From a virus, in IMG/VR virus record IMGVR_UViG_3300042154_000876, positions 11,584-75,583 of that record: a stretch of 64,000 bases of DNA. One strand, 5' to 3'. How positions within the stretch are numbered: the first letter of the stretch is position 1; the number at the start of each line of letters is the position of its first letter. Below are positions 2 to 63,999 of the stretch, one piece after another. The position numbers were made by a program, and so were the translations under genes. The notes beneath the pieces were generated by a model, which saw nothing but the letters and a program-made list of their open reading frames with translations, did not search any database and had not been told where the DNA came from.

Positions 2-3000
2 GCTGAGGCTATTATGAGCCTCTTCCCTCAGATGAGAATCCTATACGCGGTATTCAACAAAGAAAACCAAATGGAAGCTTTGGAGAAGATGCCAGATAAC
101 ACAGAGGCTAGAACCTCTGACTCTATCAGCGTTATGGCCAACGCCAACAATAAACTACGCGATAAGATGGACGCCTTATCTAAACAGGATGAACCTCACA
201 ACATGCCTGTTAACTTCTTCAGAGAAGCAGATATCGCTGATCTATTCGGTGTAAAGGATGTCACCCTATCTACAGGAAAAGATGTACCTCGCGAGCGCGT
301 AGCCGGAATCGCATCTGCTGCCTTACGAGCATGGATTCTATCCGATTCTATGAAGATTGATGCCAGTACTATTGACGCAATCTCCAGCCAGTTGAGTGAG
401 AAAGAGATGCCTCAGACAGCCGAGGACTACCGACCATTTATCCGACTTGTTCAGATGATGTGGGACGATGTTATTTCTGACCACGACCAGGATCGACGCC
501 AGCTAGTAGTCAACTTCAACCACCTATTCAAGAACTGGGCACTTACTCGCCCTGACCTGACTGAAGTAGATGGTTCTGGAAAGAGCATTCACGGTCTTAA
601 AAATGTCCCTGACTTCCTTTTCCTAGACGAAGCTCAGGATATTAACCCAGTATTCCGAAAAGTGATCGAAGACCAGTATACCCTTCACAAAAACGGTATT
701 GTTATGATTGCTGTTGGCGACAATAACCAGGCTATCTTTGGATTCCGCGGAGCAGAAGACGCTCTGAATATTGTAAAGCGAGACCTAACGCTACCTCTAA
801 CTAAGAGCTACCGAACTGGTCAGACCGTTCTAGATGCCGCTGCTAACAAGCTGCTAGCGATGCTAGGAGAGTCGTTAAGACTACAAGGTAAGGATGGTAA
901 CGGCACTAAGCTTGTTGACAATATGTCGCGAGAGAGGATCGATCTAGCCCTATCTCGAGGAACCGCCGCGATTCTAAAAGAAGCGATTGTGGTCGAGGAG
1001 ATGTTTGAGGGAGGTAGAATCGCTACCACCCTGAACTTCAAGCAAGAGCTACTAAACATGCTTAAAGCGATGACTTACCTACAGCGCGTGGACTACGTCA
1101 ACTATGCCAACGCTGAGGCACGTAAGAATGATCCAAATGCCGCGCCGATATTGCCACCTAAAAGACCTACAATACCTGGGGCATTGCTGGGCCTAAACTG
1201 GGAAACCATGTATGAGCTTCTGTCTGAAGGTAAGGGTGACCAATCTATTCAGCAGATTTGGAATGTTATCCGCGGTCACGCTAGCAAAAACAAAATTAAA
1301 ATCGGGCCAGCAATGTCTGACCTACTGAACAACATTGTTCCTAACCTTCGAGTAGTTAATCACGAGTTCCACCTTCCAGCCCAGCTAGATCCGATCGGGT
1401 CTCTCGGTGGAGGATTGGACTACGAGATTACAAAGGATAAGATTATTATCCGAGACGACCCATCCGCGGGCTTTAATGCTCGTAAGACGGCCATTAGCGG
1501 TGTCTACAATAACCGCAAGGTTCTCGAGGACTACGGGTTCTGGAACCCTAGCAAGGATCAGGCAACTGGACGATACGGTGGATTTGAGTGGGAAATCAAC
1601 CTATATGACGATGGGCGTGATCAGTTGCAGGACCTTGTCAAGGGTCTTCGCGGTGAGGACGCCATGTTCCGCATTATGACTGGTCACACCTCAAAGGGTC
1701 TGGAAGCCGATAACGTCAAGATTCTAGATGACTGGCTAGACCTAACGCCGTTCCTACCTGGTGGAGATGCTGAAAAGCAGAACGAACTGCTAGAACTGTT
1801 CCGCTCGCGTGGTCCAGACTTTGATCTTATGGAAGAGATCCGCTTGATGTATGTAGTCACTACTCGACCACGCACTGAACTTGATTTAGGTGGTTTGAAG
1901 TGGTTAAACAATCACTCACCTGAGCAACTTAAGGCTGCTGTTGATGAGATCCAAAAGCGACTAGCTATGGGATTCGGCGCAGTTGAGGAGGGCGTAGAGG
2001 TTAAGTCTCCAGAAGAGATTGAAGCCATCAAGAACCGACCAACTGGCGAAGATCTTTCTGGTCTACCTCCACGCACCGACTGGGAGGCAGAAAAAGCAGC
2101 AAAAGAGGAAAATAGTTGGAGGCTCAAGAACACTGAGGAGAGAACTAAGGAAGAGATTGGAGAAATCCCTAGGGATGGAAATCTTCCACTCAAGCCACGC
2201 TCCCGCGACAACGCTGAACTAGCCAAGTTGAAGGAAGAAAGGCGAGAGCTCGTCAGTAAGATTGCTACCGCTAAGAGTAAGGGCAAGGAGCCTAGCAAGG
2301 CCACCGAGCAAAAGTTAGCGGATGTAAATCAGAAGATTTCTGACATTGAGAATGCTGACAGTGTTGAAGAGTTTTCATCTAAAAAACGTCCAAGCTCTCC
2401 TAACTACCAGGATGAGTTTGATCGAAAGGTTGATGGTCTAAAGGCCGCTATTGCAACCGCTAAGGACATTCTAAACCTTGTGCCTGAAGACCGAACCGGA
2501 GACTTCAAGGGCTATGCTGACACCAACATCGAGGAAACTATCGCTGGACTACAAGAGGACCTAAATGCTCTGCTTGACAACCCAGACATGCTGGAGCGTG
2601 ATGACGAGGAAGACTACCGCATTGCCGAGCGTCTACTGGCTAAGCTGAATGCAGATAAGATGGCTAAACTAGACATGGGCGATCTGATGGATGCTCGTCG
2701 CATTGTGAAGAACAAGAGCGACATCACCGGAACTGATCAGAGCTTTGTCTATGGCACTACCCCACCTGTGTACCTCAACCGAGTAATGCTAGACGCACTA
2801 GAGAAGATGAAGGACCACCTGTATCGTAAGCTGAAGCACGACGAGAAGCTAGACTTCGCTCCTTATGTTTCGGACCAGGTCGAAGAGTCATCTTCTCCGG
2901 TAGAGAATATCTCTCCAGAGATGGAAAAGAAGCTCTACAACATTGTTGAAGAGGCTGCTAAGTTCTACAGCGACCGCTTGATGAACTTCAATGACCCAGG

Positions 3001-3931
3001 TGCGACCGAGGCAAAGAAGTACGTTGTATCGCGAGGATTCGGTGCTGCCAACGCCGAGACCTTTAAGATTGGATACTCTTCGAAGAACTGGGCTGACCTA
3101 TATCAGCACCTACGTCGCAAGGGATTCTCTGAAGAAGAGATCTTAGCCTCGGGACTAGTCAACAGAAGCGAAAACAACGGACGACTATTTGATGCCTTGC
3201 GCAACAGACTAGTCTTCCCCGTTAGCAACGACAAGGGCCAAGTGGTTGGTTTTGTTGGACGCTCGATTGACCCTGAAGAGCCAATCCGCTACATGAGAAC
3301 CAAGGGTACCCCGATCTTCCAGAAGTCGAGCACCTTGTTTGGTCTAGATCAGGCTAGGGATGCAATCGCTGAGTCAGGCGAGATGGTTGTTGTTGAAGGT
3401 CAGTTTGACGTTCTAGCAATGCACGCTGCCGGCATCAAGAATGCTATTGCTGCCTCGGGAACCGCATTCGGTGAGGGCCACATGGACCTATTCAACCAGA
3501 TTGTTGGTGACAAGGAAAACAAGAGCGTAGTGTTTGCTTTCGACCCAGACGAAGCCGGAATTAAAGCAGCTGGAAAAGCGTACATGATGTTGACCCAGTC
3601 CTACTTTGATGTCGCGCCTTACATTGTCTCTGATGAATCTGGACTAGACCCTTCTGACATTTACTCAAAGGATAACGAAAACGGTCTTAAGACTCTGATG
3701 GATAACAAGCGCCCAATGGCTGAAGTTCTGATCGAAAGACTTCTGTCTAGTGGTAGAGAGCTTAGCGATATCCGCGACGCTATCATTGCAATCCTGATGA
3801 ATGTCCACGACACTAACCTACAGACCCAGCTAGTTCAGCGCTTCGGCCCTCAGCTTGGTGGAGACATGGGCGAGCTGTTTGCAGAGGTTAGAATGTATGA
3901 TCCTAAGCGGAACGCTAAATACAACATCTAG
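2..3931 (+). CDS. C-terminal part of a giant multidomain protein: UvrD/SF1A-like helicase + DnaG-type primase core (5' end outside window)
   Basis: Frame open to window edge; SF1 motifs ILYAVFNK, LDEAQD, GDNNQAIFGFRGA, LTKSYR, HTSKGLE, YVVTTRPR (Walker A upstream); DnaG motifs SRG, RLVFP..GFVGR, VEGQFDV, FDPDEAG, DPSD. Confidence 0.9.
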   Translation, partial: AEAIMSLFPQMRILYAVFNKENQMEALEKMPDNTEARTSDSISVMANANNKLRDKMDALSKQDEPHNMPVNFFREADIADLFGVKDVTLSTGKDVPRERVAGIASAALRAWILSDSMKIDASTIDAISSQLSEKEMPQTAEDYRPFIRLVQMMWDDVISDHDQDRRQLVVNFNHLFKNWALTRPDLTEVDGSGKSIHGLKNVPDFLFLDEAQDINPVFRKVIEDQYTLHKNGIVMIAVGDNNQAIFGFRGAEDALNIVKRDLTLPLTKSYRTGQTVLDAAANKLLAMLGESLRLQGKDGNGTKLVDNMSRERIDLALSRGTAAILKEAIVVEEMFEGGRIATTLNFKQELLNMLKAMTYLQRVDYVNYANAEARKNDPNAAPILPPKRPTIPGALLGLNWETMYELLSEGKGDQSIQQIWNVIRGHASKNKIKIGPAMSDLLNNIVPNLRVVNHEFHLPAQLDPIGSLGGGLDYEITKDKIIIRDDPSAGFNARKTAISGVYNNRKVLEDYGFWNPSKDQATGRYGGFEWEINLYDDGRDQLQDLVKGLRGEDAMFRIMTGHTSKGLEADNVKILDDWLDLTPFLPGGDAEKQNELLELFRSRGPDFDLMEEIRLMYVVTTRPRTELDLGGLKWLNNHSPEQLKAAVDEIQKRLAMGFGAVEEGVEVKSPEEIEAIKNRPTGEDLSGLPPRTDWEAEKAAKEENSWRLKNTEERTKEEIGEIPRDGNLPLKPRSRDNAELAKLKEERRELVSKIATAKSKGKEPSKATEQKLADVNQKISDIENADSVEEFSSKKRPSSPNYQDEFDRKVDGLKAAIATAKDILNLVPEDRTGDFKGYADTNIEETIAGLQEDLNALLDNPDMLERDDEEDYRIAERLLAKLNADKMAKLDMGDLMDARRIVKNKSDITGTDQSFVYGTTPPVYLNRVMLDALEKMKDHLYRKLKHDEKLDFAPYVSDQVEESSSPVENISPEMEKKLYNIVEEAAKFYSDRLMNFNDPGATEAKKYVVSRGFGAANAETFKIGYSSKNWADLYQHLRRKGFSEEEILASGLVNRSENNGRLFDALRNRLVFPVSNDKGQVVGFVGRSIDPEEPIRYMRTKGTPIFQKSSTLFGLDQARDAIAESGEMVVVEGQFDVLAMHAAGIKNAIAASGTAFGEGHMDLFNQIVGDKENKSVVFAFDPDEAGIKAAGKAYMMLTQSYFDVAPYIVSDESGLDPSDIYSKDNENGLKTLMDNKRPMAEVLIERLLSSGRELSDIRDAIIAILMNVHDTNLQTQLVQRFGPQLGGDMGELFAEVRMYDPKRNAKYNI

Positions 3932-4315: not shown

Positions 4316-4604
4316 GACTATGGAAGACAACTACGAAGAATACCAAGTAGACATGCATGTCATCACTGCTAGTGGTGGCAAGGATTTGAAGTTCCAGCTT
4401 AAGGACCTTACCGACGAGGAGCTTAATCAGCTCTATGAAGAGACTGGACTAGAAGAAGCCCGCCTCGCTTACCGCGAGCGTACCGGTGATGATCCAGCTA
4501 AAAACCTATGGATCTATGGACCAGAAGACTTTGCGTGGTTCCAGGACTGGTGTGACCGCAACCCAGAAAAGTTTGAGAAGTTGCGAGCCCAGTATGACGT
4601 TTAG
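4308..4604 (+). CDS. Small acidic hypothetical protein (paralog B); alternative ATG at 4320
   Basis: Shares LN.L..G..EAR....RTG.DP.K....PED....W...N.EK pattern with 4052-4315. Confidence 0.8.
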   Translation: MSRTMEDNYEEYQVDMHVITASGGKDLKFQLKDLTDEELNQLYEETGLEEARLAYRERTGDDPAKNLWIYGPEDFAWFQDWCDRNPEKFEKLRAQYDV

Positions 4605-7600
4605 CCCACTATTTTTCGAAGACCCAGAAGAGCCTATCGTTGCCGCTGCTCTAAAGAACGGCAAGGAGTGGGGCTACTGGGCTGACATGCAGCTACGCGA
4701 TCCAGGAGGAGAGCGCGGCGGTTGGTTCATCGAGATGGGTGGCCTTAACCTATTCAATGGTATGGGCAAGGACGGAAAAGTCCGCGCCTACAAGGGTAAG
4801 TACATCGGCCCTTCTCCGCTTGGTCAAGGCTACGGTCGATTCCTAGTTGAAGGCGGAGACGGCGTTGACCCCGGTATCTACCACGTAAACGTATCCAACA
4901 TCGACTCCGTTAAGGGAGTTCTTAGCGAAGAATATCTACGCAGCCTGGGTCGTGACGTTCCTGCTCAAAAAGAAGGTATCGTTGACCTATCCAAGACTCG
5001 CATTGACCCGATAACTGAGCAAGACCTACAAGACGCCAACATTGAGCCGGACAAGCCTAAGAACCTCAAGAAAGCTGCCAACGACCGCGGTCAATCAGCT
5101 AAAAAACTAAAGGACCTAAAAGACGGCGACATCCTCTACGACGAGGGCAACAAGCGATTTGGCGAGGTCGTTTCTACCGTAGATAAAGATGGAAACTTTA
5201 GCCCGTGGGTTAAATGGGAAGACAATCAGATTTCTCAGATTCCTAACGCTGACCCAGAAACCGAGACCGCCGTTTGGGCAGCTCCAGCTCCTGAAGTTGA
5301 TGAATCGGCAGCCCCTAAAAAGACCGTAAAGGGTAGAGACCTCAAGGTCGGAGACGTAATCCGCGCTTGGGACGAAAACCGCACTATTACGGCGATTGAG
5401 CCAGGGCGTGGGGGGGAGCGTTACTTTATTTTTGACACTCCTGATGAAGGAGAAGACGGTCCTGATGGAAAGTTTATCAACATCAATGAGGACGTCGAGC
5501 TTGGCCGAGAAGAGGCTCCAGTCGCCCCAGCCGCCCCTGTTGCTGCCGAAAAAACAAAATCTAACAAAGTTTCTGCCTCTGAAGTTAAAAAAGGTGACTC
5601 TGTTGTAATCAACGGAGAGACCTATACGGTTTCTAAAAAATCTAACAAAAAAGCTGATGGAGTGGTTATTGGCCACAAGATTGAGTTTAGGGCCGAAGAC
5701 GGCAGCACTTTTGAAGAAGAGTTCCTTTCAGACGACACTCTAGATATTCCTGCTGCAGAGACAGCAACAAAAGAAGAGAAGAAGACTCCGCGTGGGGTTC
5801 TCACTAGTTTTGTGAAAAACATGCAGCCGGGGGATGTTCTTATTGCTGGTAAAGACGATAAGCGTCAAGAGGTGCTTTTTGTATCTGCTGAACCTATACC
5901 TCCAGTAGACAATAATGATATTCGCAAACGTTATAATATTACAGTTCAACGTGCCGACGGTGGGCTTGAAACTATTGCAGTTGATGCTACGAATGGTATC
6001 CCGCAGTTGGCTGAAACTAATGCCAAAGGTAAAACTGAAAAGGTAAACCGTAAGGACCAACTTAAAGTAGTTCCATCCGCTCCTGCCACTACAACTACTA
6101 AAACCACTCGGACCACCACAAAAACTGCAGGTGACGAGGCCGGAACCACTACAACTACCACCCCGAGGGTTCGAGCACCTGAAGTAATCCCAACAACTCC
6201 GATGTCCACCAATCCAGGTGACACCGGAGAAGTTGTTAGGGGCGTCAACTACGAAATAATGCCTGACGGAAGAATCAAGTTTTCTCGCGGGCGTCTTAAA
6301 AAGGGTAGCCGGTCGTATGACTTAATTACAAAGGTTTTACCAGGCGAGATAACTAGATCTGGTAACGGAAAAGCTTTCGCATTTTTTGAAAAGCCAGAGG
6401 GTGGGGATTACGGAAACTGGTTTGTAAGATTCGAACCGATCAAAGATTCTAAAAAAGATCTGGCTAAGCAGTTTCTCGACAGCCTCCGTGCCGGCATGGC
6501 TAAGGAAAAGGTAGAGTCTTCTGAGGAGACCGGCTCATCCTTCTCTGGGGCTAAGAACACCAAGGGCAGCATCACTGATGCCGCGTCCTATGAGGTCGAC
6601 GAGAACGGTACTGTAAAGATTTCTGGCCTAACCGAAGAACAGGTTGACCTTGTTGTTCAGGCTATGTATACGGTTCAGGGAACCACACCACTTGACCGCC
6701 CTGGAAGCGTTTCAACCAAGGTTGACTCTGACAAAGATGAAGACCGCGCCGCTGTTCTAAAGGCTGTTAGTGATGCTCTTGGTGGAACTCCAGCTGCTAC
6801 AACTACCACTACCACTACTACCCCGGACTTTGACTCCTTACCCAAGACAAAAGCTGACCCGGAGGCGGCTCGTAAGGCCGGGTTTACAGTAGACAATGTA
6901 AAGCCAGTAGATATTCAAGTTGGAGACTACATTATCAGTCCAGTGGGGTACTGGACAAAGGTTGTTGGAGAGCCTAGTATAATTCCTGATCCAAGGAACC
7001 CAGGCGAGATTGCGTGGGCTATTCCTACTGAAAACTACAAGGGAGAGAGGTTTACTCAAGACGGTTTGGGAGACCTGAACCTAAGGATTGATCGAGTTCG
7101 TGGACCTAACCACGTAGATACGCCAGAAACTGCAGACGAGGCTTTTGATAAAGAGTCCGCTCCATTCCCTATGGACACCCTGAGGGATTTAAAAGAAGGC
7201 ATCTATGCCAAAGTCGACGGCATGTGGAAAAAGATTACCAAGGTCGGTAAGCCTCAGATAGATCCTAGTGTCGATACTGAATCCGTTGTAATAGAGTTTG
7301 AAGATGGGACAAAGAAAAGGGTAGACGAGCGAGACGGCCTTACTTTAGTCCGTAAGGTCCCTGAAGGTGAAGCCACGTCCACAGCGACAACCACCACTGA
7401 AGGTCTGACTACCGATCAAAGGCTGGCTAAGCTTTTATTCTTAGTAAAGGGTAGCGGTTCCGAGGACGCGGCTTGGAATGCATCCATAATGGGCGATGCT
7501 AGAAGATCTCTTGAAGCTGCTGGAATTGATGAAAATGATTTCCTAGACTATGCAGAAAAGTCCGGGGCCTCAGATCTGCGTCAACCTGATCTAGATAAGC

Positions 7601-10600
7601 TCATTGAGAAGTATAAAGCTGATAAGGGCTCTACCACAACCACAGCCACTACCACTGAAGAGTCCGACAAGCCTACCGACGAGCAGCGCAAAACTATTGA
7701 CGACCTTATCGCTCAGATTGGCGATGAAACCAACTTTACGTCTAAGATTGTCACGGCGATGTTGGATAGCCTTACTAAAGAATCTGCAGACATGGCCATC
7801 GACATGCTTAAGGCTGCGATAGCAAACACTACAGCCCCTACCACCACAACCGCTCCTGCTCAGTCGGTATTCACACCTGGCCAGATTGATAGCGTTAACC
7901 GCCGTATAAACCTACTAACTCCGGAGCAGCAGGCTAAGGTTAAAGAGGCTATGGAGTCCGCCACCCCTAAAACCGCTAAAGACATTATGTCTAAGATTAT
8001 CAACACCCTAGATAACGCTGAAATCATTAGCCGTATCCGTAAGGGAATGCCGGTTGATGACATTTTAGCCAGGCGCAAGACCGACACCGTAGGAGCTAAC
8101 CTACTATTCGATCTAGACCGCTCTCCTAAGGAGATCGCTCAGAGACTTGCCACCTACAAACCAACCGTTAACCTAGACGGTACTCCGATTGCGGACGCTC
8201 AGCAAACTACCACTACAGTTTCAGGAGATGACACTAAGTCAGTATCTTCTCTAATATCTGACGTAATAGATTCTCTTGCTAAGGATCTGCAGACTAAGTT
8301 TGGAGCCCTAAAGTATAGATACAGCTCCAAGACTCCACAGAACGCCGAGCAGGCAGAAAAAGATCACGAAATCTACCTAGAGTACTTGTCTACGGTTGTC
8401 CCTGCCGTTATGCAGGCCCTTAAAGAGCGTCTCGACAGTCAAACAGCCGCTGGCAACCCTGACGCACAGAAAAACTATGACGACGCCGTAAGTAAGCTGA
8501 AGCAAGAACTTTGGGGACAAAACAGGGGAGCTGTCTACACCAGCGAAGCCGAAAAGCTTGTAGGCAGCGATCGAACAAAAGAGATGTCTGATGAAGCCAA
8601 CAAGGCTCTTAATGATCTACTAGCTGGAGTCAAAAAACCCGAGAAGCAGGTAACTACTGAAACTACCACTAAAGACACTTTCGGAAAGATCGGCACCTCC
8701 GGTAACCTAACTGGAAACGTTGACTACTCGATTGATAAGTTCGGCCAGATCGCTCTGACCAACGCTCCTGAAGACTTTGACGCTAGAATGGCGGAGAGTA
8801 GGGGCCTCATTATTGTTACTGACAATGGTAAAAAGTCCATTGTCCTAACCAAAAACAACGATGAAAATCGAGCCGCTGCCCTTAATCTCATAAAGGAGCG
8901 TCTAGAAGGACCGGCTCCGGTCACTACAAAGGTTGAAACACAGACTGAAGTAGCTCAAGATGTGGTAACCGGTCAAGAGCGACCAGAAGGTGGCGTCTCA
9001 AAGAAGATTTCTGAGCTGAACGTCGGAGACCGTTTATACGATGAAGAGACCGAATCCATGGCCACCGTTGTCGGTGTCTATGAGGACCCAGACCGTGCTG
9101 GCCGCATCGTACTTACTATCCGATTTGACGACGGTCGAGAGGACTCTGCTTCATATAAAAAGTCGTACGTCGTTGAGGCCTATCCTTCGCCAGAAGCACC
9201 AGCCGCAACTACCACCACCGCTGAAGATGTGGTCGGTGGCGAGGATGCGGACACCTCTAAGACAGAGGCCGAAGTCGTTGAAGACTCTCAGGTTATAGTA
9301 GAGCAGGGTGAGTCTACCACCGCTGAGCCAGGTTCTACTGTTTTAGAAGAGCCAGATGCCGAGGCCGTTGAGCCTGTAGAACCTAAGCGTAAGCCTAGGG
9401 GGCCTCGTAAGCCTAGAAAAGTAAACCTCTCTGATGTATCAGATGAAGAGCGCGAAGCATTCATTCGTATTTTTGATGCCCTAGAAAACTTCAACCGAGT
9501 TGAGGAAGAATATGGCGGTAAGAAATATGATTCTAAGTGGTATATCGACGAGAAAGACCGCAAGTTCGATAACAAAGATGTAGAGGAGCTTGCTTCTCAG
9601 AATACCAAGGGTATTGGTGAAGACCTAGGTATTCAGTTGATGGACTCCACTACGGACGCCTATGAGCCAGGGGCATTCTCGAGTACTCGTCAGCCGACTC
9701 CAGGAGCATTTACCGGCCGAGTTGCGCGCATGGTTGAAGGCAAGACCAAAGCAGAGACTCGCAATATTCTTAAGGGCCTAAAGGTTTCGTGGTTTGATAC
9801 TGAAACTACAGGAATCTCTAACTTTGATGGTGACCCTACAAATAATGATGTGGTCCAGGTAGGTATTGTAAACACTCAGAATGGTGAGGTCCTAGAGCGC
9901 CTAAACATCTACATCAACCCTGGTGTAGAGGATGGGGTCCGACTAGGCAAGTGGGCCACAAACAACTTAGTCAAAGATGCAGTTGGCGAGGACGGTCAGC
10001 CTATTCTGGGACCAGACGGCAAGCCAACAACCGAACCAATCACCAACGAGTGGTTATCGGAGCAGATGTCTATTGCTGACGCTGTTCAGCAGATCATGGA
10101 CTTCATGGGTCGCGATCCGATTCTTGGCGGTCAGAACGTTCCGTTTGACCTTCAGGTTCTCCAGCGTATGTTGGATAAGGCTGGGGTTAGGGGTTACCGC
10201 ATCGGTGGAACCATTGACTCTAAGGACCTATCTGAAGAGTTCCTACCTAAGTACAACGAGTACGAAGGAACTGACGGACCTAAAAGGTTTGATAAAGAGC
10301 GTAACAAGTTTGTGCCTACCTCTAGCCTAGGCTACGTAGCCGAGTTCCTGGGATTTGGTACTACGCGTTGGCACTCAGCCGATGCCGATGCCGAAGACGC
10401 TTGGAAACTTGCTTCTGCAACTATGGACCGTGCAGCGTCCGAGGACCCAACGGGAACTAGCGATTTGATGAACCAAAGCGCCATGAGAAGTCGTTATACA
10501 GAACGTATGGCTAAGTTCCTAAAGACGATTGACCCGCGCAACCCGTCTACGGCTAAACAACACGGTGCAGTTCGTAAAGAAGGCTTTGGAGAATACCTAG

Positions 10601-13600
10601 ACGATCTAGGGCTTTCCCGTGACCACCAAAATGCACTGTTCGACCAGATTAAGCAAATGACTCGTGGTGAAGCCGCCAGGTTTATCAGCACTTTCATCGA
10701 AGCCAATCCGCTACCTAAGCCTAGCGCTAAGCCTTCCATTCAAAATAGAGTACTAGATCTGAATCAGGTCACTAAAAACATCAAGAACCTTGAAAGACTT
10801 AAGTCTCAACCGCTTCCTTCCGCTCTTAGGGATATGGGCACCGTCCCGACCGATACTGAAGAAAAAATACAACACTTTAACAGGGAATTCTCTGACTTCC
10901 TAAAGAAAAAGTACCCGGACCTAACTCTTGGTGAAATCTGGTCATCTAGAAACAGCAATATCGATGTCGAGAAAGATTTTAATTACTTCTCTGATTTATA
11001 TCAAAAAACTATGTCTCTGCCCGATAGTAAGGTTTTTGGTATTGGTAACGCCACTATAACCGCAAAAGACGGCATCCTAAGCAAGCGAGACTTGGCAATA
11101 GTGTCTAATGCCTTAGAAGTACTACAAGAGAGATTCTCTCTAGGCGAGACCCCTATTGATGTCCGCTATATGCCTCAAGAAGAATTAGACCGTCTCGCTG
11201 AAAAGAAGAATGTAACAGGGTCTGCATACATCGATGAAGACGGTGCGCACATAATTATTTCTGAGCGGACTCTTGGTGTCTATGAGAAAGACGGTAGGAG
11301 CGGTAAGACTGGGTCAGTGTCCGCTCACTTGGCTACTGTGATCCATGAGTACGGTCACCTAGTTCATGCACTACTACTAGGGTCTAATTTCACAGAAAAA
11401 GAAAAAGCAGACCTGGCTAAAGAGTTCCAACGTAGATTCAAAAAAACTAGGGTCACTGATTACGGCGAAACTAGTACTGCTGAAAAGTTTGCCGAACTGT
11501 TCTATGACATGGAATACAGCAGAATCGAAGGAACTGAACCTGCAGTTCCAGAGTTTAGCGAGTTTATGGAGTCCATTAAGGGTCGGAAGGCTGCTATTAA
11601 GCCTTCCCTGCTTAACAGGATGGGGATCAAGAAGCCTCAGGCTCGACAAATGCCCCCTGAGAACACCAAGCCAGAGTTTGATGGAGCCACCAAGCTTTCT
11701 GGTGCTAACCTAGCCGCGTTTGAGGGATCCTCAGACAGCCTGCGCGGTAGTGACCAAGAGGCTGGCTACATCCCGGACCCTAGTGATCAAAAAGCTTTTA
11801 ATGAGTTTAGACTTCAGATAAGTCTTAACCCTGGCGATCTAGTGTCTGAGGCGCAAGCGCGTATTAGATTTAAGAAGGAAATCGAGAAGGCTAAAAAAGA
11901 CGCCCGACGCTACGAAGTACTTAAAGTTGAAGGCACAAACTCCTACATCCGCTACAAGAACGGAGACGCTTCTCCAGAAGCCATCCAGCAGACGATTGAC
12001 CAGCTGCGTGACCTGGAAGACTTCAACGTTGCTGGCGGCATTTCTCAGGTTGTAACCTTAGCCAAGCGCGAAACCTTCTCTGTTGGAAGACTATTTGCCA
12101 CAACGCAGGGGACCGAAGAGGAGATCCATGGATACTCTCTTCTAGATTCGGATAAGGGTATTGGTCACATTGTTGTTGACCCTGACTTAGTCTCCGAGTC
12201 CCCTGGCTCTGTACCTGGAATCGCTGTAGGACAATACTACGCTAATGGTGGCGTTGACGCTCAGAATATGTTGAAACGCACCTTGGTGCACGAGTATGCG
12301 CACAACTGGGCTAAAGTGATTCTAGGACACCGCCAACAAGACAGCGCAAGATTTGATGAGTTTGTTCGCAGTGTAGTTCAGAGAATCCAAACTTCGGGTG
12401 GGAGAAGTGTCCACCCAATCTCGGAGATTGCCGAGGGTGGAGACGGTGAAAGCTTCGCTGAGTTCTTTACGGCCGCCTTCTTCCAGATTGTTGAAGGCCG
12501 CATGCTCCCTACTAAGGGATCTCCGCTTGATCAGTTTATTCAGTTCTTTGCTAAATATGCTGGAGCCAACGTTGAGCCAATCATTAAGAACATCAGCCCT
12601 ATCGTTCAGGTTGAAGAGTCGTCTTCTGGCGGACAACGACTAAAGTTCCCTAAGAACCATGAGGGAGCTGGGTCAGAGAATGTCTACCTAGAGTACAACC
12701 GACGCAGAGAGTTCTACCGAAATGGGCTAGATCCTTACGGACGCCCACTAAGCGATGCCCGTGCGGCAATGATTCGCGAATACAGCAGCTACATCGATAA
12801 ACTAGAGTCTGCGTACCAGTCCACCATGCGCGCTGAAGACTTCGACGTTATGACTTCAGCTATGGCGGCCCTAAAACGAGTCTATGATTCGATGTTCTTT
12901 GCCTACGCTAAGAATAACTCCAGATTCAATGTAGACACTATTGGTGAGAACATTGAAGCTAATGAACAAAGCTTCCGTAGCTGGACAGCACCTACTTCCC
13001 CTCTATTCTTACCTGAATCTGAGGGACCTTTCAAGAATGAGATAACCACCGGACGCTATACAGACGTCGACGGTATTTCCTATCCGCTTGTATACATCTC
13101 TTCGACTAAGGCAGATGGTCGCACCTATACAGCTACAGTTGCTCTTGACCCAGAGAACACCGACTTTGACCTTGCCACTGCCAATATGGACACCCTAATT
13201 GAGGCATCTGTTGGAAAGATGATAACCATATCGGACAAAGAAAAGACTAGCCAGATTCTTGACTACATCTCGGTTGACGGTGACCTACGTCACAGGGGCA
13301 TAGCCACCTCTCTTCTATCCTTCACTAGAAGCAACACAACTAAGAAGGTTTTGCACAAGGGTAAGTCTGCCCCGGATGTTTCAGCTTGGGCCCAGTCGGT
13401 AGATAGTTCTGAAAAGTCCTACGAATCCGCTCCTCGTGCGTTTGACGATGCTTCTCACGTTGCTCGACACAACCGCAACGCTATCAACCTAATCTCTGAT
13501 CGCGAGCCGCCTCAGGAGATCGACACGTCTTCAGAGACCTTAGAGGCCGAGGCGCTACACTATGCGGGGGAAAACTACGGAAACTTCTATCACCCTAACT

Positions 13601-16600
13601 TGCAGGACTACATGTCTAAGCAGGGTGGCGGACTTGGTGTCTACAACTCTACAGTTGGTTATGTCTCAGCTGAGACTCTCAGTTCGATGCGCGGCAATGA
13701 GCCTAAAGATCCGGACAGCGTGGCTCGCAAGGTTGAAGACCTACAGGACGGCGACGGATTCGACCAACCGGTAAGCGTCGTCTATAACCCTCGCACCGGT
13801 GAAGCTTATGTAGCCGACGGTAACCACCGCGTCCAGGCTTCGCTAGACGCTGGCGTTGCTTATGTACCTACAAGAGTCTTTATCATGGATGTTCCTCCTG
13901 CACAGGAGAACCCACAGATTAAGAAGTTGGAACGCGATGGCGGTCTACCTCTACCTGAGGGCGCAGATGAAGTTCACCCATACTTTGTCTTCAATAAAGA
14001 AGATCTAGTTAATGGAAAAGACCTATCTGACCCTAGCGTTGTTGAAGAAATGGCTTCTAACGTTGTTGTTTGGTCTGGTCGCGGTAAGGCTTCCGAGCGC
14101 AACCGCTCCGGAAGGTATGACCCAGACCCTAACAACATCTTTGAGCAGCTTGCCCCAGGCGAATACGTTATGGACAAGAAGACCAAAAAGATTTATCAGG
14201 TATACAGCCAAGACTTTACTACCGAAGTAGGCCAAGACGGTGTAGAAAGAGCCGTATTCACCGGGAAGATTGTTGTCCGAGAGTTTGAAGGCAACTTAGA
14301 TAACCTATCTAGAGTAAGAATCTCGACGCAGTTTGGCGATAACAATATCCGCTACGCTCAGGGTGGACAATCCTCTGCCGACGATTCATATAATGACGCT
14401 CGCTCATATATTGACGAGATTCGCGACCCAGCGGACTTTGAGAATGTTACTGACTCGTTTATAAAGCTCAGTGACCAGCCTATCCTTATCAGCGATACGA
14501 TGTACGTTGTTCAGACCGAGACCGGTATCAAGGGTCGAATCTCTAAGTTTGTCTCTCCTGGAGTAGTTAGACTTGATGTTCTAAAGGGATATAACGAGGA
14601 CGGCGAACCTCTCTATGATCAGATAGAGTCCCCGATAACCCAGCTTCTACCTATCCAGAACCAGCAGCAGGTCCCTAATGGACAGCCTGCTATGGAGCAT
14701 GCCCCTGATATGCAAATATCTAACTCTACCTGGGACTCGATCAACACCTTGTCCTCTACCCTGTTGAAGTGGGGCTACCTATCAGAAGATAAGTACAAGG
14801 CTATTCAGACCCTAGTTCACGGTAAGTTTATTACCCAAAGCGGTGCTCTGGACCTTGAGCGTTCGCTCAGAAACCACGACGTAGTTAGACGAGCAAAGAT
14901 TCGTGGCGTCGCAGTGAAGTCACCTGCCACTGGAGAACCTGTTGCACAGGCGCCTGTACAGCAAGCTGCCCCGTCTGCCCCTGCCGCGCCTTCAGTTGGC
15001 CAAGGCGAGGCCGGAGGTCGCTCATTTGAGCAGCTCCTAGAAATGAAGCGTGCTCGTAAGAAGGCAGATGCCGGGCTATCTGTAGAAGAGTTTGCATCTC
15101 CTGTCACAAAGATTAAGGTAACTAAGAACCCTCCTACCCAAAGCCAGATTCTAGAAGTAGAGCGTCTTCTTTCTGAAGACGGTGCGGTAACCCCGCAGCG
15201 TGCATTTGATATTCTATCTTCACTACCTACTCTAAATGCAGAAGCCACCGAAGCTGTACTAGAAGAGATCCGAGCAGATGTTCTCAACAAGAGGATTTCT
15301 AAGGATGAAAGCATCACTGGTCTTGTAGTTCCTAAGGGCTTTAATAGATCCAAAATCTCTGGATACCAGCCAGCCGTTGAGGAATCATCTACCGGCTTTG
15401 AGATCGATAGAGATGCGGAAGAGCCTAATGAAGACGGAGAGGTTAGCCCAGGAGCGAAGCCAGAAGAAGAAGGTCCTAAGATGTCGTTCAATGCTCAACA
15501 GAAGTCAGCTATTGACTCTGTAGTTAGCAGTGAAGGCGGCCTATTCTTTATCACTGGTGGTGCTGGTACTGGTAAGACCACTATTAAGAAGGAAATCGAC
15601 AAGCGCGAGAAGGCCAAAAATAGAAGGACTATGACCATTGCCCCTACGGGTAAGGCAGCCCTTCAGGCAGAGGGAGCTACCATCCACTCTACGTTCAAGA
15701 TTCCAGTAGGCCCTTTAACCGATTTTAGCCCGTCCGAGACTTACAACAAGAATATGGGTACTGCCAAGGGCCGTAAATCTATGGCTGCTTTGCGCACGGC
15801 AGACACCATCTTCATTGATGAAGTTTCTATGGTTCGAGCAGATCTGATGGATGCTATGGACAGGATGCTTAGGGTTGTCAAGGGAAACATGTCTGAGCCT
15901 TTTGGTGGAGCTAAGATTGTTATGCTTGGAGACTTGGCTCAGCTTCCTCCAGTAGGTATTGACTCTAGCCCTGAAAACCAGGGACCTCGCCAGCGATTCC
16001 AAGAGACTTATGCTGATGACTACTTCCTAAGTGCTAACTCATGGGCATCTTCGGCGTTTGAGGTTCACAACTTGACTGAGTCTATGCGTCAAAGCGCAGA
16101 GGATGATGCCTGGTTCGAGCAGTTCCTAAGGGAGAGGGCTCGATTCGCTGAGGTGACTCAGGAAGACATGGAGAAGCTGTGGGAGATTAGCGAAAAAAAC
16201 CGCAAGCGTGATGCTGAAGAGGGTGTCACATCCGAGCCTATCCACCTGGTGTCTACAAATGCTGCCGCAGACGAGATCAACAAGAAAAAGTTTGCTGAAC
16301 TTGAGGGTGAAGCAGTTAAATTTACTGCTACCATTGACGCTCCAGAAGGCTCTGACATTAAGCCGTTTGTTCGAAATGGCGGTCTACCTAAAGAGGAAAT
16401 GGAATACAAGATCGGTGAGCCGGTAATGTTTATCAAGAACGATGACGCACAGCAGCGCAAATCTGCTGGAGGCAACCTTCCGAACGAGTCCAGATGGGTA
16501 AACGGAAGTCAGGGCGTAATCACAAGATTTGAATATGCTGAAGGCGAAGATGGCCAGACCCCTATTGCTATCTATGTAAAGATTGGCGACAAGGAGCACC

Positions 16601-17370
16601 GAGTAGTTCCTGCCACATGGGAAGATGTAGAATACGGCGTATCTACCAAGATTGAAGAAGAGAAGAACATCGTTGAGGGACCTACTCAAGAAGTTTTGTC
16701 TACCTATACTCAGATTCCTTTGATGCCAGGATGGGCTATGACTACCCACAAGTCTCAGGGAGCCACTATGGACTCAGCTGTGGTCGACTATTCGATTAAG
16801 TACTCTGATAATGGAGATATTCTCACTCAAAATAGCCCTTTTGCTGCTGGACAGGTCTATGTAGCACTTAGCCGACTACGTAGCTCGAATGGTCTCTACT
16901 TGACTAGGAAGCTAAATAAAAATGACTTTATTAGAATCGAACGTAGCGTTACCGATTTCTTCAAGAATGTTGATGCTCAGACAGCCGCTAACCAGGTCTC
17001 CGAAAGTTCCGCTCCAAAGAAGTTTGACCCGCTAAAAGGATACATTTCTGAAGTAGATCTTGCTTCAGCCCTAGACAGCGGGGAACTCACCGGACCAGCT
17101 GGCCAGAACCTTACGGACTACCAGTCCACCGCTATCAAGAACAAACTCCGTCTGATGCGTGAAAATCCTAATAGTGCTGATCGTTATAGAGAAGAAATTG
17201 CTAAGCTAATGAACTCTTGGTTTGGTGTCGAGGAGCCTGGAGAAGAGATCCCTGCTGTAGCTGCCCCCATTGAGATCCGCATGGACAACTTCCGCGACCC
17301 GTCGGAACGTCAGGCCACAATAGACCTACTTACTAAGAGTGGTATTCCCTACACTTTGAAGTACGATTAA
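4594..17370 (+). CDS. Giant polyvalent protein (~4258 aa): SH3/KOW-like repeats, DEDDh exonuclease, two zincin peptidases, GNAT, ParB-like, Pif1/RecD helicase
   Basis: FDTETTG/QNVPFD/HSADAD; HEYGH and HEYAH each with downstream E..AE.F; LRHRGIATSLL; DGNHR; GGAGTGKT, DEVSM, GDLAQLPPV, HKSQG, YVALSR. ATG 4594 preferred because it overlaps the upstream stop. Confidence 0.9.
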   Translation: MTFSPLFFEDPEEPIVAAALKNGKEWGYWADMQLRDPGGERGGWFIEMGGLNLFNGMGKDGKVRAYKGKYIGPSPLGQGYGRFLVEGGDGVDPGIYHVNVSNIDSVKGVLSEEYLRSLGRDVPAQKEGIVDLSKTRIDPITEQDLQDANIEPDKPKNLKKAANDRGQSAKKLKDLKDGDILYDEGNKRFGEVVSTVDKDGNFSPWVKWEDNQISQIPNADPETETAVWAAPAPEVDESAAPKKTVKGRDLKVGDVIRAWDENRTITAIEPGRGGERYFIFDTPDEGEDGPDGKFININEDVELGREEAPVAPAAPVAAEKTKSNKVSASEVKKGDSVVINGETYTVSKKSNKKADGVVIGHKIEFRAEDGSTFEEEFLSDDTLDIPAAETATKEEKKTPRGVLTSFVKNMQPGDVLIAGKDDKRQEVLFVSAEPIPPVDNNDIRKRYNITVQRADGGLETIAVDATNGIPQLAETNAKGKTEKVNRKDQLKVVPSAPATTTTKTTRTTTKTAGDEAGTTTTTTPRVRAPEVIPTTPMSTNPGDTGEVVRGVNYEIMPDGRIKFSRGRLKKGSRSYDLITKVLPGEITRSGNGKAFAFFEKPEGGDYGNWFVRFEPIKDSKKDLAKQFLDSLRAGMAKEKVESSEETGSSFSGAKNTKGSITDAASYEVDENGTVKISGLTEEQVDLVVQAMYTVQGTTPLDRPGSVSTKVDSDKDEDRAAVLKAVSDALGGTPAATTTTTTTTPDFDSLPKTKADPEAARKAGFTVDNVKPVDIQVGDYIISPVGYWTKVVGEPSIIPDPRNPGEIAWAIPTENYKGERFTQDGLGDLNLRIDRVRGPNHVDTPETADEAFDKESAPFPMDTLRDLKEGIYAKVDGMWKKITKVGKPQIDPSVDTESVVIEFEDGTKKRVDERDGLTLVRKVPEGEATSTATTTTEGLTTDQRLAKLLFLVKGSGSEDAAWNASIMGDARRSLEAAGIDENDFLDYAEKSGASDLRQPDLDKLIEKYKADKGSTTTTATTTEESDKPTDEQRKTIDDLIAQIGDETNFTSKIVTAMLDSLTKESADMAIDMLKAAIANTTAPTTTTAPAQSVFTPGQIDSVNRRINLLTPEQQAKVKEAMESATPKTAKDIMSKIINTLDNAEIISRIRKGMPVDDILARRKTDTVGANLLFDLDRSPKEIAQRLATYKPTVNLDGTPIADAQQTTTTVSGDDTKSVSSLISDVIDSLAKDLQTKFGALKYRYSSKTPQNAEQAEKDHEIYLEYLSTVVPAVMQALKERLDSQTAAGNPDAQKNYDDAVSKLKQELWGQNRGAVYTSEAEKLVGSDRTKEMSDEANKALNDLLAGVKKPEKQVTTETTTKDTFGKIGTSGNLTGNVDYSIDKFGQIALTNAPEDFDARMAESRGLIIVTDNGKKSIVLTKNNDENRAAALNLIKERLEGPAPVTTKVETQTEVAQDVVTGQERPEGGVSKKISELNVGDRLYDEETESMATVVGVYEDPDRAGRIVLTIRFDDGREDSASYKKSYVVEAYPSPEAPAATTTTAEDVVGGEDADTSKTEAEVVEDSQVIVEQGESTTAEPGSTVLEEPDAEAVEPVEPKRKPRGPRKPRKVNLSDVSDEEREAFIRIFDALENFNRVEEEYGGKKYDSKWYIDEKDRKFDNKDVEELASQNTKGIGEDLGIQLMDSTTDAYEPGAFSSTRQPTPGAFTGRVARMVEGKTKAETRNILKGLKVSWFDTETTGISNFDGDPTNNDVVQVGIVNTQNGEVLERLNIYINPGVEDGVRLGKWATNNLVKDAVGEDGQPILGPDGKPTTEPITNEWLSEQMSIADAVQQIMDFMGRDPILGGQNVPFDLQVLQRMLDKAGVRGYRIGGTIDSKDLSEEFLPKYNEYEGTDGPKRFDKERNKFVPTSSLGYVAEFLGFGTTRWHSADADAEDAWKLASATMDRAASEDPTGTSDLMNQSAMRSRYTERMAKFLKTIDPRNPSTAKQHGAVRKEGFGEYLDDLGLSRDHQNALFDQIKQMTRGEAARFISTFIEANPLPKPSAKPSIQNRVLDLNQVTKNIKNLERLKSQPLPSALRDMGTVPTDTEEKIQHFNREFSDFLKKKYPDLTLGEIWSSRNSNIDVEKDFNYFSDLYQKTMSLPDSKVFGIGNATITAKDGILSKRDLAIVSNALEVLQERFSLGETPIDVRYMPQEELDRLAEKKNVTGSAYIDEDGAHIIISERTLGVYEKDGRSGKTGSVSAHLATVIHEYGHLVHALLLGSNFTEKEKADLAKEFQRRFKKTRVTDYGETSTAEKFAELFYDMEYSRIEGTEPAVPEFSEFMESIKGRKAAIKPSLLNRMGIKKPQARQMPPENTKPEFDGATKLSGANLAAFEGSSDSLRGSDQEAGYIPDPSDQKAFNEFRLQISLNPGDLVSEAQARIRFKKEIEKAKKDARRYEVLKVEGTNSYIRYKNGDASPEAIQQTIDQLRDLEDFNVAGGISQVVTLAKRETFSVGRLFATTQGTEEEIHGYSLLDSDKGIGHIVVDPDLVSESPGSVPGIAVGQYYANGGVDAQNMLKRTLVHEYAHNWAKVILGHRQQDSARFDEFVRSVVQRIQTSGGRSVHPISEIAEGGDGESFAEFFTAAFFQIVEGRMLPTKGSPLDQFIQFFAKYAGANVEPIIKNISPIVQVEESSSGGQRLKFPKNHEGAGSENVYLEYNRRREFYRNGLDPYGRPLSDARAAMIREYSSYIDKLESAYQSTMRAEDFDVMTSAMAALKRVYDSMFFAYAKNNSRFNVDTIGENIEANEQSFRSWTAPTSPLFLPESEGPFKNEITTGRYTDVDGISYPLVYISSTKADGRTYTATVALDPENTDFDLATANMDTLIEASVGKMITISDKEKTSQILDYISVDGDLRHRGIATSLLSFTRSNTTKKVLHKGKSAPDVSAWAQSVDSSEKSYESAPRAFDDASHVARHNRNAINLISDREPPQEIDTSSETLEAEALHYAGENYGNFYHPNLQDYMSKQGGGLGVYNSTVGYVSAETLSSMRGNEPKDPDSVARKVEDLQDGDGFDQPVSVVYNPRTGEAYVADGNHRVQASLDAGVAYVPTRVFIMDVPPAQENPQIKKLERDGGLPLPEGADEVHPYFVFNKEDLVNGKDLSDPSVVEEMASNVVVWSGRGKASERNRSGRYDPDPNNIFEQLAPGEYVMDKKTKKIYQVYSQDFTTEVGQDGVERAVFTGKIVVREFEGNLDNLSRVRISTQFGDNNIRYAQGGQSSADDSYNDARSYIDEIRDPADFENVTDSFIKLSDQPILISDTMYVVQTETGIKGRISKFVSPGVVRLDVLKGYNEDGEPLYDQIESPITQLLPIQNQQQVPNGQPAMEHAPDMQISNSTWDSINTLSSTLLKWGYLSEDKYKAIQTLVHGKFITQSGALDLERSLRNHDVVRRAKIRGVAVKSPATGEPVAQAPVQQAAPSAPAAPSVGQGEAGGRSFEQLLEMKRARKKADAGLSVEEFASPVTKIKVTKNPPTQSQILEVERLLSEDGAVTPQRAFDILSSLPTLNAEATEAVLEEIRADVLNKRISKDESITGLVVPKGFNRSKISGYQPAVEESSTGFEIDRDAEEPNEDGEVSPGAKPEEEGPKMSFNAQQKSAIDSVVSSEGGLFFITGGAGTGKTTIKKEIDKREKAKNRRTMTIAPTGKAALQAEGATIHSTFKIPVGPLTDFSPSETYNKNMGTAKGRKSMAALRTADTIFIDEVSMVRADLMDAMDRMLRVVKGNMSEPFGGAKIVMLGDLAQLPPVGIDSSPENQGPRQRFQETYADDYFLSANSWASSAFEVHNLTESMRQSAEDDAWFEQFLRERARFAEVTQEDMEKLWEISEKNRKRDAEEGVTSEPIHLVSTNAAADEINKKKFAELEGEAVKFTATIDAPEGSDIKPFVRNGGLPKEEMEYKIGEPVMFIKNDDAQQRKSAGGNLPNESRWVNGSQGVITRFEYAEGEDGQTPIAIYVKIGDKEHRVVPATWEDVEYGVSTKIEEEKNIVEGPTQEVLSTYTQIPLMPGWAMTTHKSQGATMDSAVVDYSIKYSDNGDILTQNSPFAAGQVYVALSRLRSSNGLYLTRKLNKNDFIRIERSVTDFFKNVDAQTAANQVSESSAPKKFDPLKGYISEVDLASALDSGELTGPAGQNLTDYQSTAIKNKLRLMRENPNSADRYREEIAKLMNSWFGVEEPGEEIPAVAAPIEIRMDNFRDPSERQATIDLLTKSGIPYTLKYD

Positions 17371-62922: not shown

Positions 62923-63999
62923 CTAATCCAGCATCTCCCAGATGGTAAAGCTAAAAGTATCTCCAGTTGAGATTGTTGCACCAGAGGATGCCGCACTAAT
63001 AGTAATATTTCCGCTAACATCTACAAAGCCACCAATTAGTGGACCAGAACCGTTTGTGAGAACCATTCCGCTTGCGGCGGTTGAGCCATACCAACCGCTT
63101 GAGAAAAATGCAATCTGTGAGTTAGTAATGTTACCTGTGGCAGGTACTGTAATGTTTGCACCAGTACGGCTAACTGTAATGATTCCATTAACCATGCCGT
63201 TTAAGCGACGGACACTGAAGCTAGTGAGCGACCAGCCAGTTGATGCGGTAAGAGGAACACCTGCAGAAGATGTAGTTATCCAACCTGAGTCATTTGCATA
63301 AATGTTGCTGGTAAAAGTTTTAGTTCCGGCAAACGTTTGTGCAGCTGTAGTCACGATTCCAGACGCTGTATTTGATGCCGAAGGAATTGCTGCTACTGAG
63401 ATAGTGGCTGATGTGCCAGTAATATTAGCAGTAGGACCAGACCCCGCTCCGGAAGTCCACGCCCAAGTGGTTGGAAAGGTGTTAGTGTCAGTATCTACCC
63501 ATGGGACGTTGACAACTGCTTGACCTGTTGCGTTTAACTGTATTCCGTATGTTCTTGATGCAGTGGAAGTGACTGCACTGGCTGCAACAGACTGTGTTGT
63601 ATCGGAAAATAGCTCAATTCCTCCTAGTGTTGTGGAGGTTGCTGTCGGAAGTGAATACGTTGCTCCAGTTGTCCCTTGTGCACCAGTAGTACCCTGAATT
63701 CCCGTACCCGTAATACCCTGAGTACCTGTAGAGCCCGTAACACCCTGAGACCCCGTCGCACCCGTGGTTCCCTGAATACCTGTAGAACCTGTAATACCTT
63801 GAGTTCCGGTGGCCCCTGTGGTGCCCTGCGCGCCGGTTGCTCCCGTGGTTCCTTGGGCACCAGTGGTTCCCGTGGTTCCCTGTATGCCTGTGGCACCTTG
63901 AATACCTGTAGAGCCAGTCGTTCCTTGCGCACCTACTGAACCTTGAATACCAGTAGCACCTGTTGAGCCCTGAATACCGGTCGAACCAGTAATACCTTG
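62923..63999 (-). CDS. Collagen-like fibre protein, C-terminal part (start beyond window)
   Basis: Frame open to window end; G-X-T/G-X-Q triplets, then [19 protein letters not shown] and fibre-tip-like domain. Confidence 0.85.

Follow-up and report, generated by a model that had tools for sequence, protein, structure and literature searches.

Enzymes delivered with the virion decide the first minutes of an infection, and the known cases include the RNA polymerases of N4, phiKZ, and crAss-like phages, the Alt ADP-ribosyltransferase of T4, and the anti-restriction Dar proteins of P1. Polyvalent proteins, i.e., the multi-enzyme proteins of phages and conjugative elements that are delivered with the DNA, are largely counter-defence kits, and among phages they are exemplified by DarB/DdrB of P1 and the virion RNA polymerase of N4 (Iyer et al. 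2017, PMC5512222). According to the same survey, polyvalent proteins carry DnaG/Toprim primases only in elements with transfer systems resembling the type IV secretion system (T4SS) and "never" in phages, the reason given being that conjugation transfers single-stranded DNA (ssDNA) and phages inject double-stranded DNA (dsDNA); the ArdC-N domain is also mainly conjugative (PMC5512222). The TraC1 and Sog transfer primases lack a zinc-binding domain, travel with the DNA, and prime complementary-strand synthesis, TraC1 combining an MPTase with a C-terminal Toprim primase (PMC5512222). Here, we analyse a window of 64,000 nucleotides (bases 11584-75583 of the 75.6-kb viral record IMGVR_UViG_3300042154_000876, CheckV completeness about half) from a freshwater siphovirus related to actinophages. 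Its first gene, at 2..3931 on the plus strand, encodes the end of a 3163-residue protein, hereafter the giant, which carries a UvrD-like helicase and a DnaG catalytic core. We read it as a cysteine-free polyvalent polyprotein that would be cleaved, packaged, and delivered, with the core priming the incoming genome, and we give this reading a probability of roughly 55%.

The frame filling 2..3931 is cut by the window edge and represents only the C-terminal 1309 residues. The original prediction had called for the upstream sequence, and fetching the 11583 bases 5' of the window gave an extended locus, L002, which contains the full 3163-residue open reading frame (ORF); the in-window share is its last 41%. 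Independent metagenomic homologs of 2960-3576 residues show the same unbroken frame, thus the giant is not an assembly artefact. From the N- to the C-terminus, it consists of a 417-residue module (N-module), two pieces without a family match, a DEDDh exonuclease, the UvrD-like helicase, a 172-residue helical piece, and the 347-residue DnaG core. On the whole protein, Pfam and PHROGs recognised four parts (DEDDh exonuclease, UvrD-helicase/UvrD_C, DNAG_N, and Toprim), and about 1600 residues were left without assignment. What had been described as a two-domain helicase-primase fusion is actually the end of a seven-piece protein, in which two predicted cut sites and the 172-residue piece lie between the two domains. 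The giant thus joins several unrelated enzymatic domains in one very large polypeptide and is encoded among virion genes, as polyvalent proteins are. Moreover, it contains no cysteine, and its 4294-residue neighbour contains one, against 0.65-1.3% in replication proteins; the homologs counted (P0007, P0009, P0014, P0022, P0051, and P0095) are also cysteine-free. In this respect, the giant resembles structural proteins and contrasts with the replication proteins of the same phage.

The primase piece corresponds to the RNA-polymerase domain (RPD) of DnaG. In the whole giant, Pfam placed DNAG_N (PF08275) at residues 2853-2973 (E 3e-33) and Toprim at residues 2981-3072; in the window ORF, DNAG_N covers residues 999-1119, i.e., nucleotides ~2996-3358 (E 8.6e-34), and Toprim_2/4 reaches nucleotide ~3655 (E 1e-13). 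The closest solved relative by sequence is the RPD of Mycobacterium tuberculosis DnaG (5w33, E 5.5e-44), with whose catalytic acids the motifs VEGQFD, FDPDEAG, and LDPSD line up. The N-subdomain and TOPRIM core originally described, with all their catalytic acids, were therefore confirmed. In a 30-sequence alignment of the phage family and cellular DnaGs, where the phage-family rows are 33-96% identical to the window piece, residues E173, D177, D222, D224, and D257 are invariant, as are the basic residues R128 and K149, and the catalytic motifs are retained in further family members (P0006, P0011, P0012, and P0022, 41-57% identical). Then, an AlphaFold2 (AF2) model of the piece after the last VEESSS was built with an alignment of family members and cellular DnaGs (pLDDT 91, pTM 0.88). 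Foldseek gave template modelling (TM) scores of 0.79/0.88 against the M. tuberculosis RPD, 0.79-0.90 against those of M. tuberculosis and Staphylococcus aureus, and 0.72-0.90 when those of Bacillus subtilis and Escherichia coli were included; the model covers the RPD and nothing beyond. The structural match to the T7 and T4 primases was weak (TM 0.35-0.42).

Set against a full-length cellular DnaG, the giant has the RPD and neither the zinc ribbon nor the DnaB-binding domain. As had been predicted, zf-CHC2 (PF01807) was not found by Pfam, either in the window ORF or in the whole giant, and a CHC2 finger or any such zinc-binding domain elsewhere in the protein is excluded because there is no cysteine. 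In the cellular relatives of the alignment, a CPFH...CFGCG finger lies just upstream of the point where the phage piece starts. At the opposite end, the C-terminal DnaB-binding domain is not present, the giant ending with the helical subdomain of the RPD; the cellular DnaG matches (570-660 residues) align only via their residues ~100-440, run ~180 residues further, and carry PF08278. With both accessory domains lost, the primase piece is therefore a bare catalytic core. The replacement of the DnaG motif PKYLN(S/T) by IRYMRT also holds in the alignment with KYVNT/KYLNS, and across the phage family this position reads [IAS][RK]Y[MVA]xx. The missing zinc-binding domain had been regarded as an oddity, but the Toprim primases associated with transfer, TraC1/Sog among them, usually have none (PMC5512222). 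For replication, the phage encodes a module of its own (PrimPol-D5, a family A polymerase, an SNF2 helicase, and a PD-(D/E)XK nuclease), so that the DnaG core is a second primase, as the original prediction had held from the separate Prim-Pol/D5 gene that Pfam confirms. By score, the nearest named cellular DnaGs are those of Microbacteriaceae (35% identity, 197 bits), and actinobacterial MobF relaxase-primase fusions reach at most 99 bits. The piece is 55-58% identical to its homologs (41% for P0012), compared with 30-44% for the helicase and 28-43% for the mid part without a match.

The helicase is a divergent member of the UvrD/Rep group of superfamily 1A (SF1A), on the basis of Walker A, DEAQD, motifs III and VI, and Pfam; the best PDB chain was only FBH1 (E 8e-9). 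In the giant, UvrD-helicase and UvrD_C span residues 1838-2481 (Pfam, also AAA_19), while in the window ORF the UvrD-helicase match has an E-value of 3.5e-10 and is accompanied by UvrD_C; the piece also matches the DNA helicase family phrog_1967 (E 3.5e-44). The SF1A motifs reported earlier are all present, at window nucleotides 623-640 (LDEAQD), 713-754 (VGDNNQAIFGFRGA), 1679-1705 (TGHTSKGLE), and 1853-1873 (VVTTRPR), with Walker A (AGVGKTT) just outside, 14-34 nucleotides 5' of the window start. The DEDDh 3'-5' exonuclease (RNase_T/DnaQ/PolC-type) occupies giant residues 1297-1483 (E 1e-14).

The borders between the pieces are marked by a short motif, [VI]EE[SMF][SA][SA], which occurs six times in the giant (residues 415, 540, 1250, 1785, 2642, and 2814), with 0.006 copies expected from composition-preserving shuffles. 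For a slightly wider form, the second giant has seven copies, the protease protein one, and the other window ORFs of at least 150 residues none. The sites sit in the gaps between the recognisable domains. The exonuclease domain is preceded by one at a distance of 45 residues and the helicase by one at ~40 residues; another follows the helicase, and a further one lies 3 residues ahead of the primase piece. Eight aligned homologs have their sites at the same borders, with a separate consensus for each lineage, namely VEEMA(S/T) in P0006, P0008, and P0010, xQEMA(S/T) in P0011, SEE(R/M) in P0012, and KMAA in P0095. The first three variants have 5-7 copies each (<0.12 expected), and KMAA only two by the pattern used (0.15 expected). 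At the primase border, a lineage-specific equivalent (VEEMAT, QEMAT, SEERST, or KMAA) stands at the same place in every homolog. Sites cut by a co-evolving protease would be expected to drift together in this way within one protein, which suggests that the border motifs are protease sites. The predicted products would be residues 1-417, 418-542, 543-1252, 1253-1787 (exonuclease), 1788-2644 (helicase), 2645-2816, and 2817-3163 (primase core). Cleavage after Glu, at x-X-E, is known for the prohead proteases of T4, phiKZ, 201phi2-1, and SPN3US, which also process ejection proteins (PMC5694885).

The gene of the giant lies in the head module, where the order is portal (phrog_776), a 690-residue ferritin-like fusion, the giant, two small ORFs, a second giant, a protease/scaffold protein, the capsid protein, the major tail protein, and a head-tail adaptor; a 1330-residue ORF in tape-measure position (no family match) and Dit follow further downstream. 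Searching IMG/VR with the 417-residue N-module, we found 13 loci, in all of which the ferritin-like gene is followed by an N-module giant; the portal is held by 12 of them, the remaining one (L016) starting inside the ferritin-like gene. In the cultured relatives Mimi and DSL-LC01, a giant gene is found at the equivalent place, between portal and protease, that of DSL-LC01 sharing only the N-module and Mimi gp77 only the UvrD part.

The mid, exonuclease, and helicase parts are present as far as each of the 13 loci reaches, and the primase was found in four (L005, L006, L008, and L010). Between the helical piece and the primase, the orthologs P0006, P0012, P0022, and P0095 (the last being the giant of L008, downstream of the portal) carry ArdC-N, which binds ssDNA, and the zincin MPTase-PolyVal. 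The giant of L013 ends with ArdC-N/MPTase and has no primase, P0006 has ~620 residues between helicase and primase, and the clade of the window together with P0011 has the primase without ArdC/MPTase. Since the presence of primase and ArdC/MPTase varies among relatives, these cassettes are gained and lost independently. The original prediction had allowed that the architecture might prove common in databases, and it is not: helicase and primase parts are joined at no place in 50,697 deposited phage records, and in a library of 1.84 billion representatives the architecture is found only in a few clusters (P0003, P0006, P0009, P0011, P0022, and P0095), followed by a small number of tandem-primase proteins and, after these, by ordinary DnaGs with a zinc finger. 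It is thus a rare architecture, limited to a single group of uncultured freshwater phages and conserved inside that group. A plasmid collection gave only ordinary dnaG genes and MobF relaxase-primase fusions. The stretch itself is present in many lake-water metagenome runs, among which no RNA run is listed.

The N-module (residues 1-417, L002 6023-7273) is the best conserved part of the giant, with 61-96% identity among homologs, and in it an invariant QRRDDEGQFAEMGGG stretch precedes a beta-rich domain. The giant of phage DSL-LC01, although unrelated in its other parts, has this module too, with 35% identity. Its AF2 model is of moderate quality (pLDDT 64), and neither Foldseek against PDB and BFVD (no match at E <= 0.001) nor the ESM Atlas (no usable match) gave a relative. 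In the first 1290 residues of the giant, Pfam found nothing significant, with a sub-threshold DNA_Packaging_2 match at residues 1280-1309 (E 0.034), and PHROGs gave only the start of the exonuclease match (from residue 1235). Residues 543-1252 (L002 7649-9778) form a 710-residue helical region with no family match, 28-43% conserved among distant homologs. By eye, this region shows recurring units of ~60 residues (...H-V-x-x-E-M-x-x-x-x-D-E-M...); BLAST self-comparison of the giant detected no internal repeats.

The ArdC-N/MPTase of the orthologs, the cassette turnover, and the place in the head module suggest that the giant behaves as a polyvalent protein. In the mechanism that we propose, the precursor would be loaded into the prohead through the N-module and cut after Glu by a phage protease, as head and ejection proteins are by the proteases of T4, phiKZ, and SPN3US, and the pieces would exit the capsid together with the DNA. 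Helicase and exonuclease could then expose single strands at ends or nicks of the entering genome, and there the bare primase core would lay short RNA primers, with little or no sequence preference, before phage gene expression; PrimPol-D5 would then serve ordinary replication. Among phages, such a system would correspond to the TraC1/Sog primases, which conjugative plasmids deliver to recipient cells. Early priming after injection had already been put forward in the original prediction, and it fits the head-module place, the absence of cysteine, the border motifs, and the ArdC-N/MPTase of the orthologs, whereas the priming step itself is conjectural. More tentatively, and in our view less likely than not, the two giants could together form a capsid-packed DNA-entry kit with two DEDDh exonucleases, helicases of both polarities, the DnaG core, and, in relatives, ArdC, which would expose, protect, and prime single strands of the phage genome on entry in a conjugation-like way, ahead of phage gene expression.

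Some points weigh against delivery and entry priming. Without the zinc domain, isolated cores of DnaG and T7 primase are poor at priming and no longer specific for a template, so that the activity of the bare core would need a partner. The relaxed form of the border motif is absent from the portal, ferritin-like, and capsid proteins, thus the prohead protease may not be the cutting enzyme. For the N-module, no MuF or capsid-targeting fold was found, and Pfam detected neither an MPTase nor an ArdC-N domain in the window protein itself. Furthermore, it is not obvious why a dsDNA phage would have to prime at entry, and this same argument has been used to explain why phages have no such primases (PMC5512222). 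Finally, we infer virion presence, cleavage, ejection, and priming by the giant from sequence.

A different explanation is that the giant stays uncut and that the UvrD-like helicase and the DnaG core work coupled, as a superfamily 1 helicase-primase, the motif being a linker signature. All the domains are indeed in one frame in every homolog, coherently with the fusion initially proposed, but the motifs are far above chance and drift jointly in each lineage like protease substrate sites, and ~370 residues, including a separate helical piece, lie between the two domains. Also, the stretch from the helicase to the C-terminus gains and loses the primase and ArdC cassettes (as in L013 and P0006 above), and we consider this coupled machine unlikely. 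We hold as quite improbable that the giant is a late repair or replication polyprotein that would stay unpackaged and act in the cell producing the phage, e.g., on concatemers awaiting packaging. Although exonuclease, helicase, and primase are ordinary activities of DNA metabolism, the gene is strictly between portal and protease in all loci, its product shares the lack of cysteine with the structural proteins and not with the replication proteins of this phage, the orthologs carry ArdC-N/MPTase-PolyVal, and a full replication module already exists elsewhere in the phage.

Once delivered, the core could also, instead of priming replication, synthesise short RNAs or RNA-DNA hybrids, by which DNA ends or single strands would be shielded or a host defence hindered; the original prediction had proposed such an anti-defence oligonucleotide synthesiser. 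This would agree with a catalytic site that is intact while the modules for specificity (zinc) and replisome docking are lost, with the pairing of the core and the anti-restriction ArdC in relatives, and with the largely counter-defence role of polyvalent proteins (PMC5512222). However, no sequence feature separates such a role from priming, and in TraC1 and Sog, the nearest analogues with experimental data, the activity is the priming of the complementary strand (PMC5512222); we give shielding a low probability. The least likely explanation, and in our opinion a very improbable one, is that the primase domain is an inactive relic or a decoy. The change of PKYLNS to IRYMRT and the loss of both the zinc and the DnaB-binding domains could be read in this way, but EGxxD, DxD, DPxD, R128, and K149 are invariant in the 30-sequence alignment, the motifs are kept in further members, the piece is among the best conserved of the giant, and its model is a complete RPD. 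The decoy role, suggested also in the original prediction, is thus weakened by catalytic acids conserved across the family.

Other genes of the window are given in Table 1. The second giant contains a DEDD exonuclease (residues ~1744-2044) and a PIF1/Dda-like helicase at the C-terminus, and it shares with the first only a weak similarity over 74 residues (34%, pairwise E 0.003) and the exonuclease domains. In the 1500-residue head protein, the protease and scaffold PHROG matches fall at residues ~790-1200, ~780 N-terminal residues have no match, and the border motif is at residue 42. The capsid protein is 67% identical to that of DSL-LC01, a lake-water metagenomic Actinomycetia phage, and ~50-56% identical to the capsids of Microbacterium and Arthrobacter phages of ~190 kb. 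The 690-residue protein upstream of the giant (L002 3948-6020) has an N-terminal ferritin/Dps-like domain (Pfam E 2.5e-13) and a DUF5824; it contains 13 cysteines, unlike its cysteine-free neighbours, and is found at the same position in 13/13 IMG/VR loci with 65-86% identity. Six contigs of 20-76 kb from different samples (L005, L008, L010, L013, L015, and the record of the window) end 4.3-6.0 kb 5' of the giant, ~1-2 kb before the portal and with no terminase gene between the end and the portal; such a shared end could reflect a physical end of the genome, a repeat, or a hypervariable spot. At the opposite side of the window (62923-63999, minus strand), an ORF with collagen triple-helix repeats (Pfam E 3.5e-16) extends past the edge.

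Table 1. Coordinates of the giant, of its pieces and motifs, and of other genes in the window (window numbering, except where L002 is indicated).
Feature	Position	Strand	Details
Whole giant gene	L002 6023..15514	+	GTG start, 3163 codons, begins 5561 nt before the window
UvrD-like SF1A helicase piece	2..2371 (aa 1788-2644)	+	Begins 199 nt before the window
Predicted protease site VEEFSS, C-terminal end of the helicase piece	2363..2380	+	Motif search, homolog alignment
172-aa helical piece	2372..2887	+	Between the helicase and primase pieces
Predicted protease site VEESSS, 3 residues ahead of the primase piece	2879..2896	+	Motif search, homolog alignment
DnaG RNA-polymerase domain only (N-subdomain, TOPRIM, helical subdomain)	2888..3931	+	347 aa; Pfam, PDB, AF2
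IRYMRT, counterpart of the DnaG motif PKYLN(S/T)	3284..3301	+	Aligns with KYVNT/KYLNS
VEGQFD, TOPRIM EGxxD catalytic motif	3392..3409	+	E, G, D invariant, 30-sequence alignment
FDPDEAG, TOPRIM DxD metal-binding motif	3539..3559	+	D222, D224 invariant, 30-sequence alignment
LDPSD, third acidic motif (DPxD)	3644..3658	+	D257, P258 invariant, 30-sequence alignment
Second giant head-module ORF	4486..17370	+	Up to 4294 aa (start codon uncertain), 1 Cys
1500-aa prohead protease/scaffold-type protein	17464..21966	+	phrog_859, phrog_18402, phrog_29860; weak Peptidase_S78
Major capsid protein	22098..24137	+	phrog_777, E 7e-82
Replicative PrimPol-D5 primase-helicase of the phage	56317..58941	+	Pfam Prim-Pol 1.8e-30, D5_N 6.5e-29

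The gene content suggests a phage-borne polyvalent polyprotein with a DnaG core as cargo and, in relatives, ArdC, a combination previously described only for conjugative elements. A virion-packaged DnaG primase was not found for phages in our literature searches, and a later jumbo-phage survey from the Iyer group reports no such case. If the reading is correct, DNA priming and end-processing by a capsid-borne primase, helicase, and exonucleases would join the activities delivered by virions. The published divide between phage-type and conjugative-type polyvalent proteins (PMC5512222) would also be blurred. If the more tentative DNA-entry kit exists, it would mean that phages have virion-borne priming and that their incoming genome passes through, or arrives with, single-stranded stretches. 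The family is also a natural, conserved case of a DnaG catalytic core without both accessory domains, and it offers a clean test of what a bare core is capable of, while the lineage-specific cleavage motifs could define a protease-substrate code for the loading and release of cargo enzymes.

In comparison with the described polyvalent proteins, the giant has the same build, a multi-enzyme polypeptide among virion genes with modular cargo that varies between close relatives, ArdC-N and MPTase-PolyVal in orthologs, and a predicted delivery with the DNA. It differs in that a Toprim primase and, in relatives, ArdC-N are found in a portal-adjacent phage gene, and in that no MuF, DarA, ADP-ribosyltransferase (ART), or other phage-type hallmark was detected, the N-module matching no known family. 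Like TraC1 of RP4 and Sog of R64/ColIb-P9, it has a Toprim/DnaG-type primase without zinc ribbon or DnaB-binding domain that is thought to accompany the DNA, and in P0006, P0012, and P0095 the primase follows an ArdC-N and MPTase pair, TraC1 likewise having an MPTase and a C-terminal Toprim primase. Unlike these, it would travel with a tailed dsDNA phage, recognised from portal, capsid, an ORF in tape-measure position, and Dit, and not through a T4SS moving ssDNA, the window protein is without ArdC/MPTase, and its core scores nearer to the cellular DnaG of Microbacteriaceae than to relaxase-primase fusions.

With the bacterial DnaG (5w33), the core shares the full RPD fold, all the catalytic acids, and 30-40% identity to actinobacterial DnaG, whereas it has no CHC2 ribbon, no DnaB-binding domain, and IRYMRT in place of PKYLN(S/T), and is embedded in a 3163-residue precursor. 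T7 gp4 and Twinkle also have primase and helicase in one reading frame, but theirs are an N-terminal zinc-finger DnaG-like primase and a C-terminal hexameric superfamily 4 (SF4) helicase; in the giant, ~370 residues lie between an SF1A UvrD-like helicase and the primase downstream of it, two predicted cut sites fall in this interval, and Pfam found no DnaB-family match, which sets it apart from the T7 gp4 type. Lastly, the ejection and inner-body proteins of phiKZ, 201phi2-1, and SPN3US and the internal proteins of T4 are head-internal, Glu-processed at x-X-E, and released into the cell (PMC5694885), as is predicted for the giant. Those products are, however, separate and mostly small, and their enzymatic cargo is a virion RNA polymerase, while here a DNA-processing set is strung on two giant precursors for which processing is predicted.

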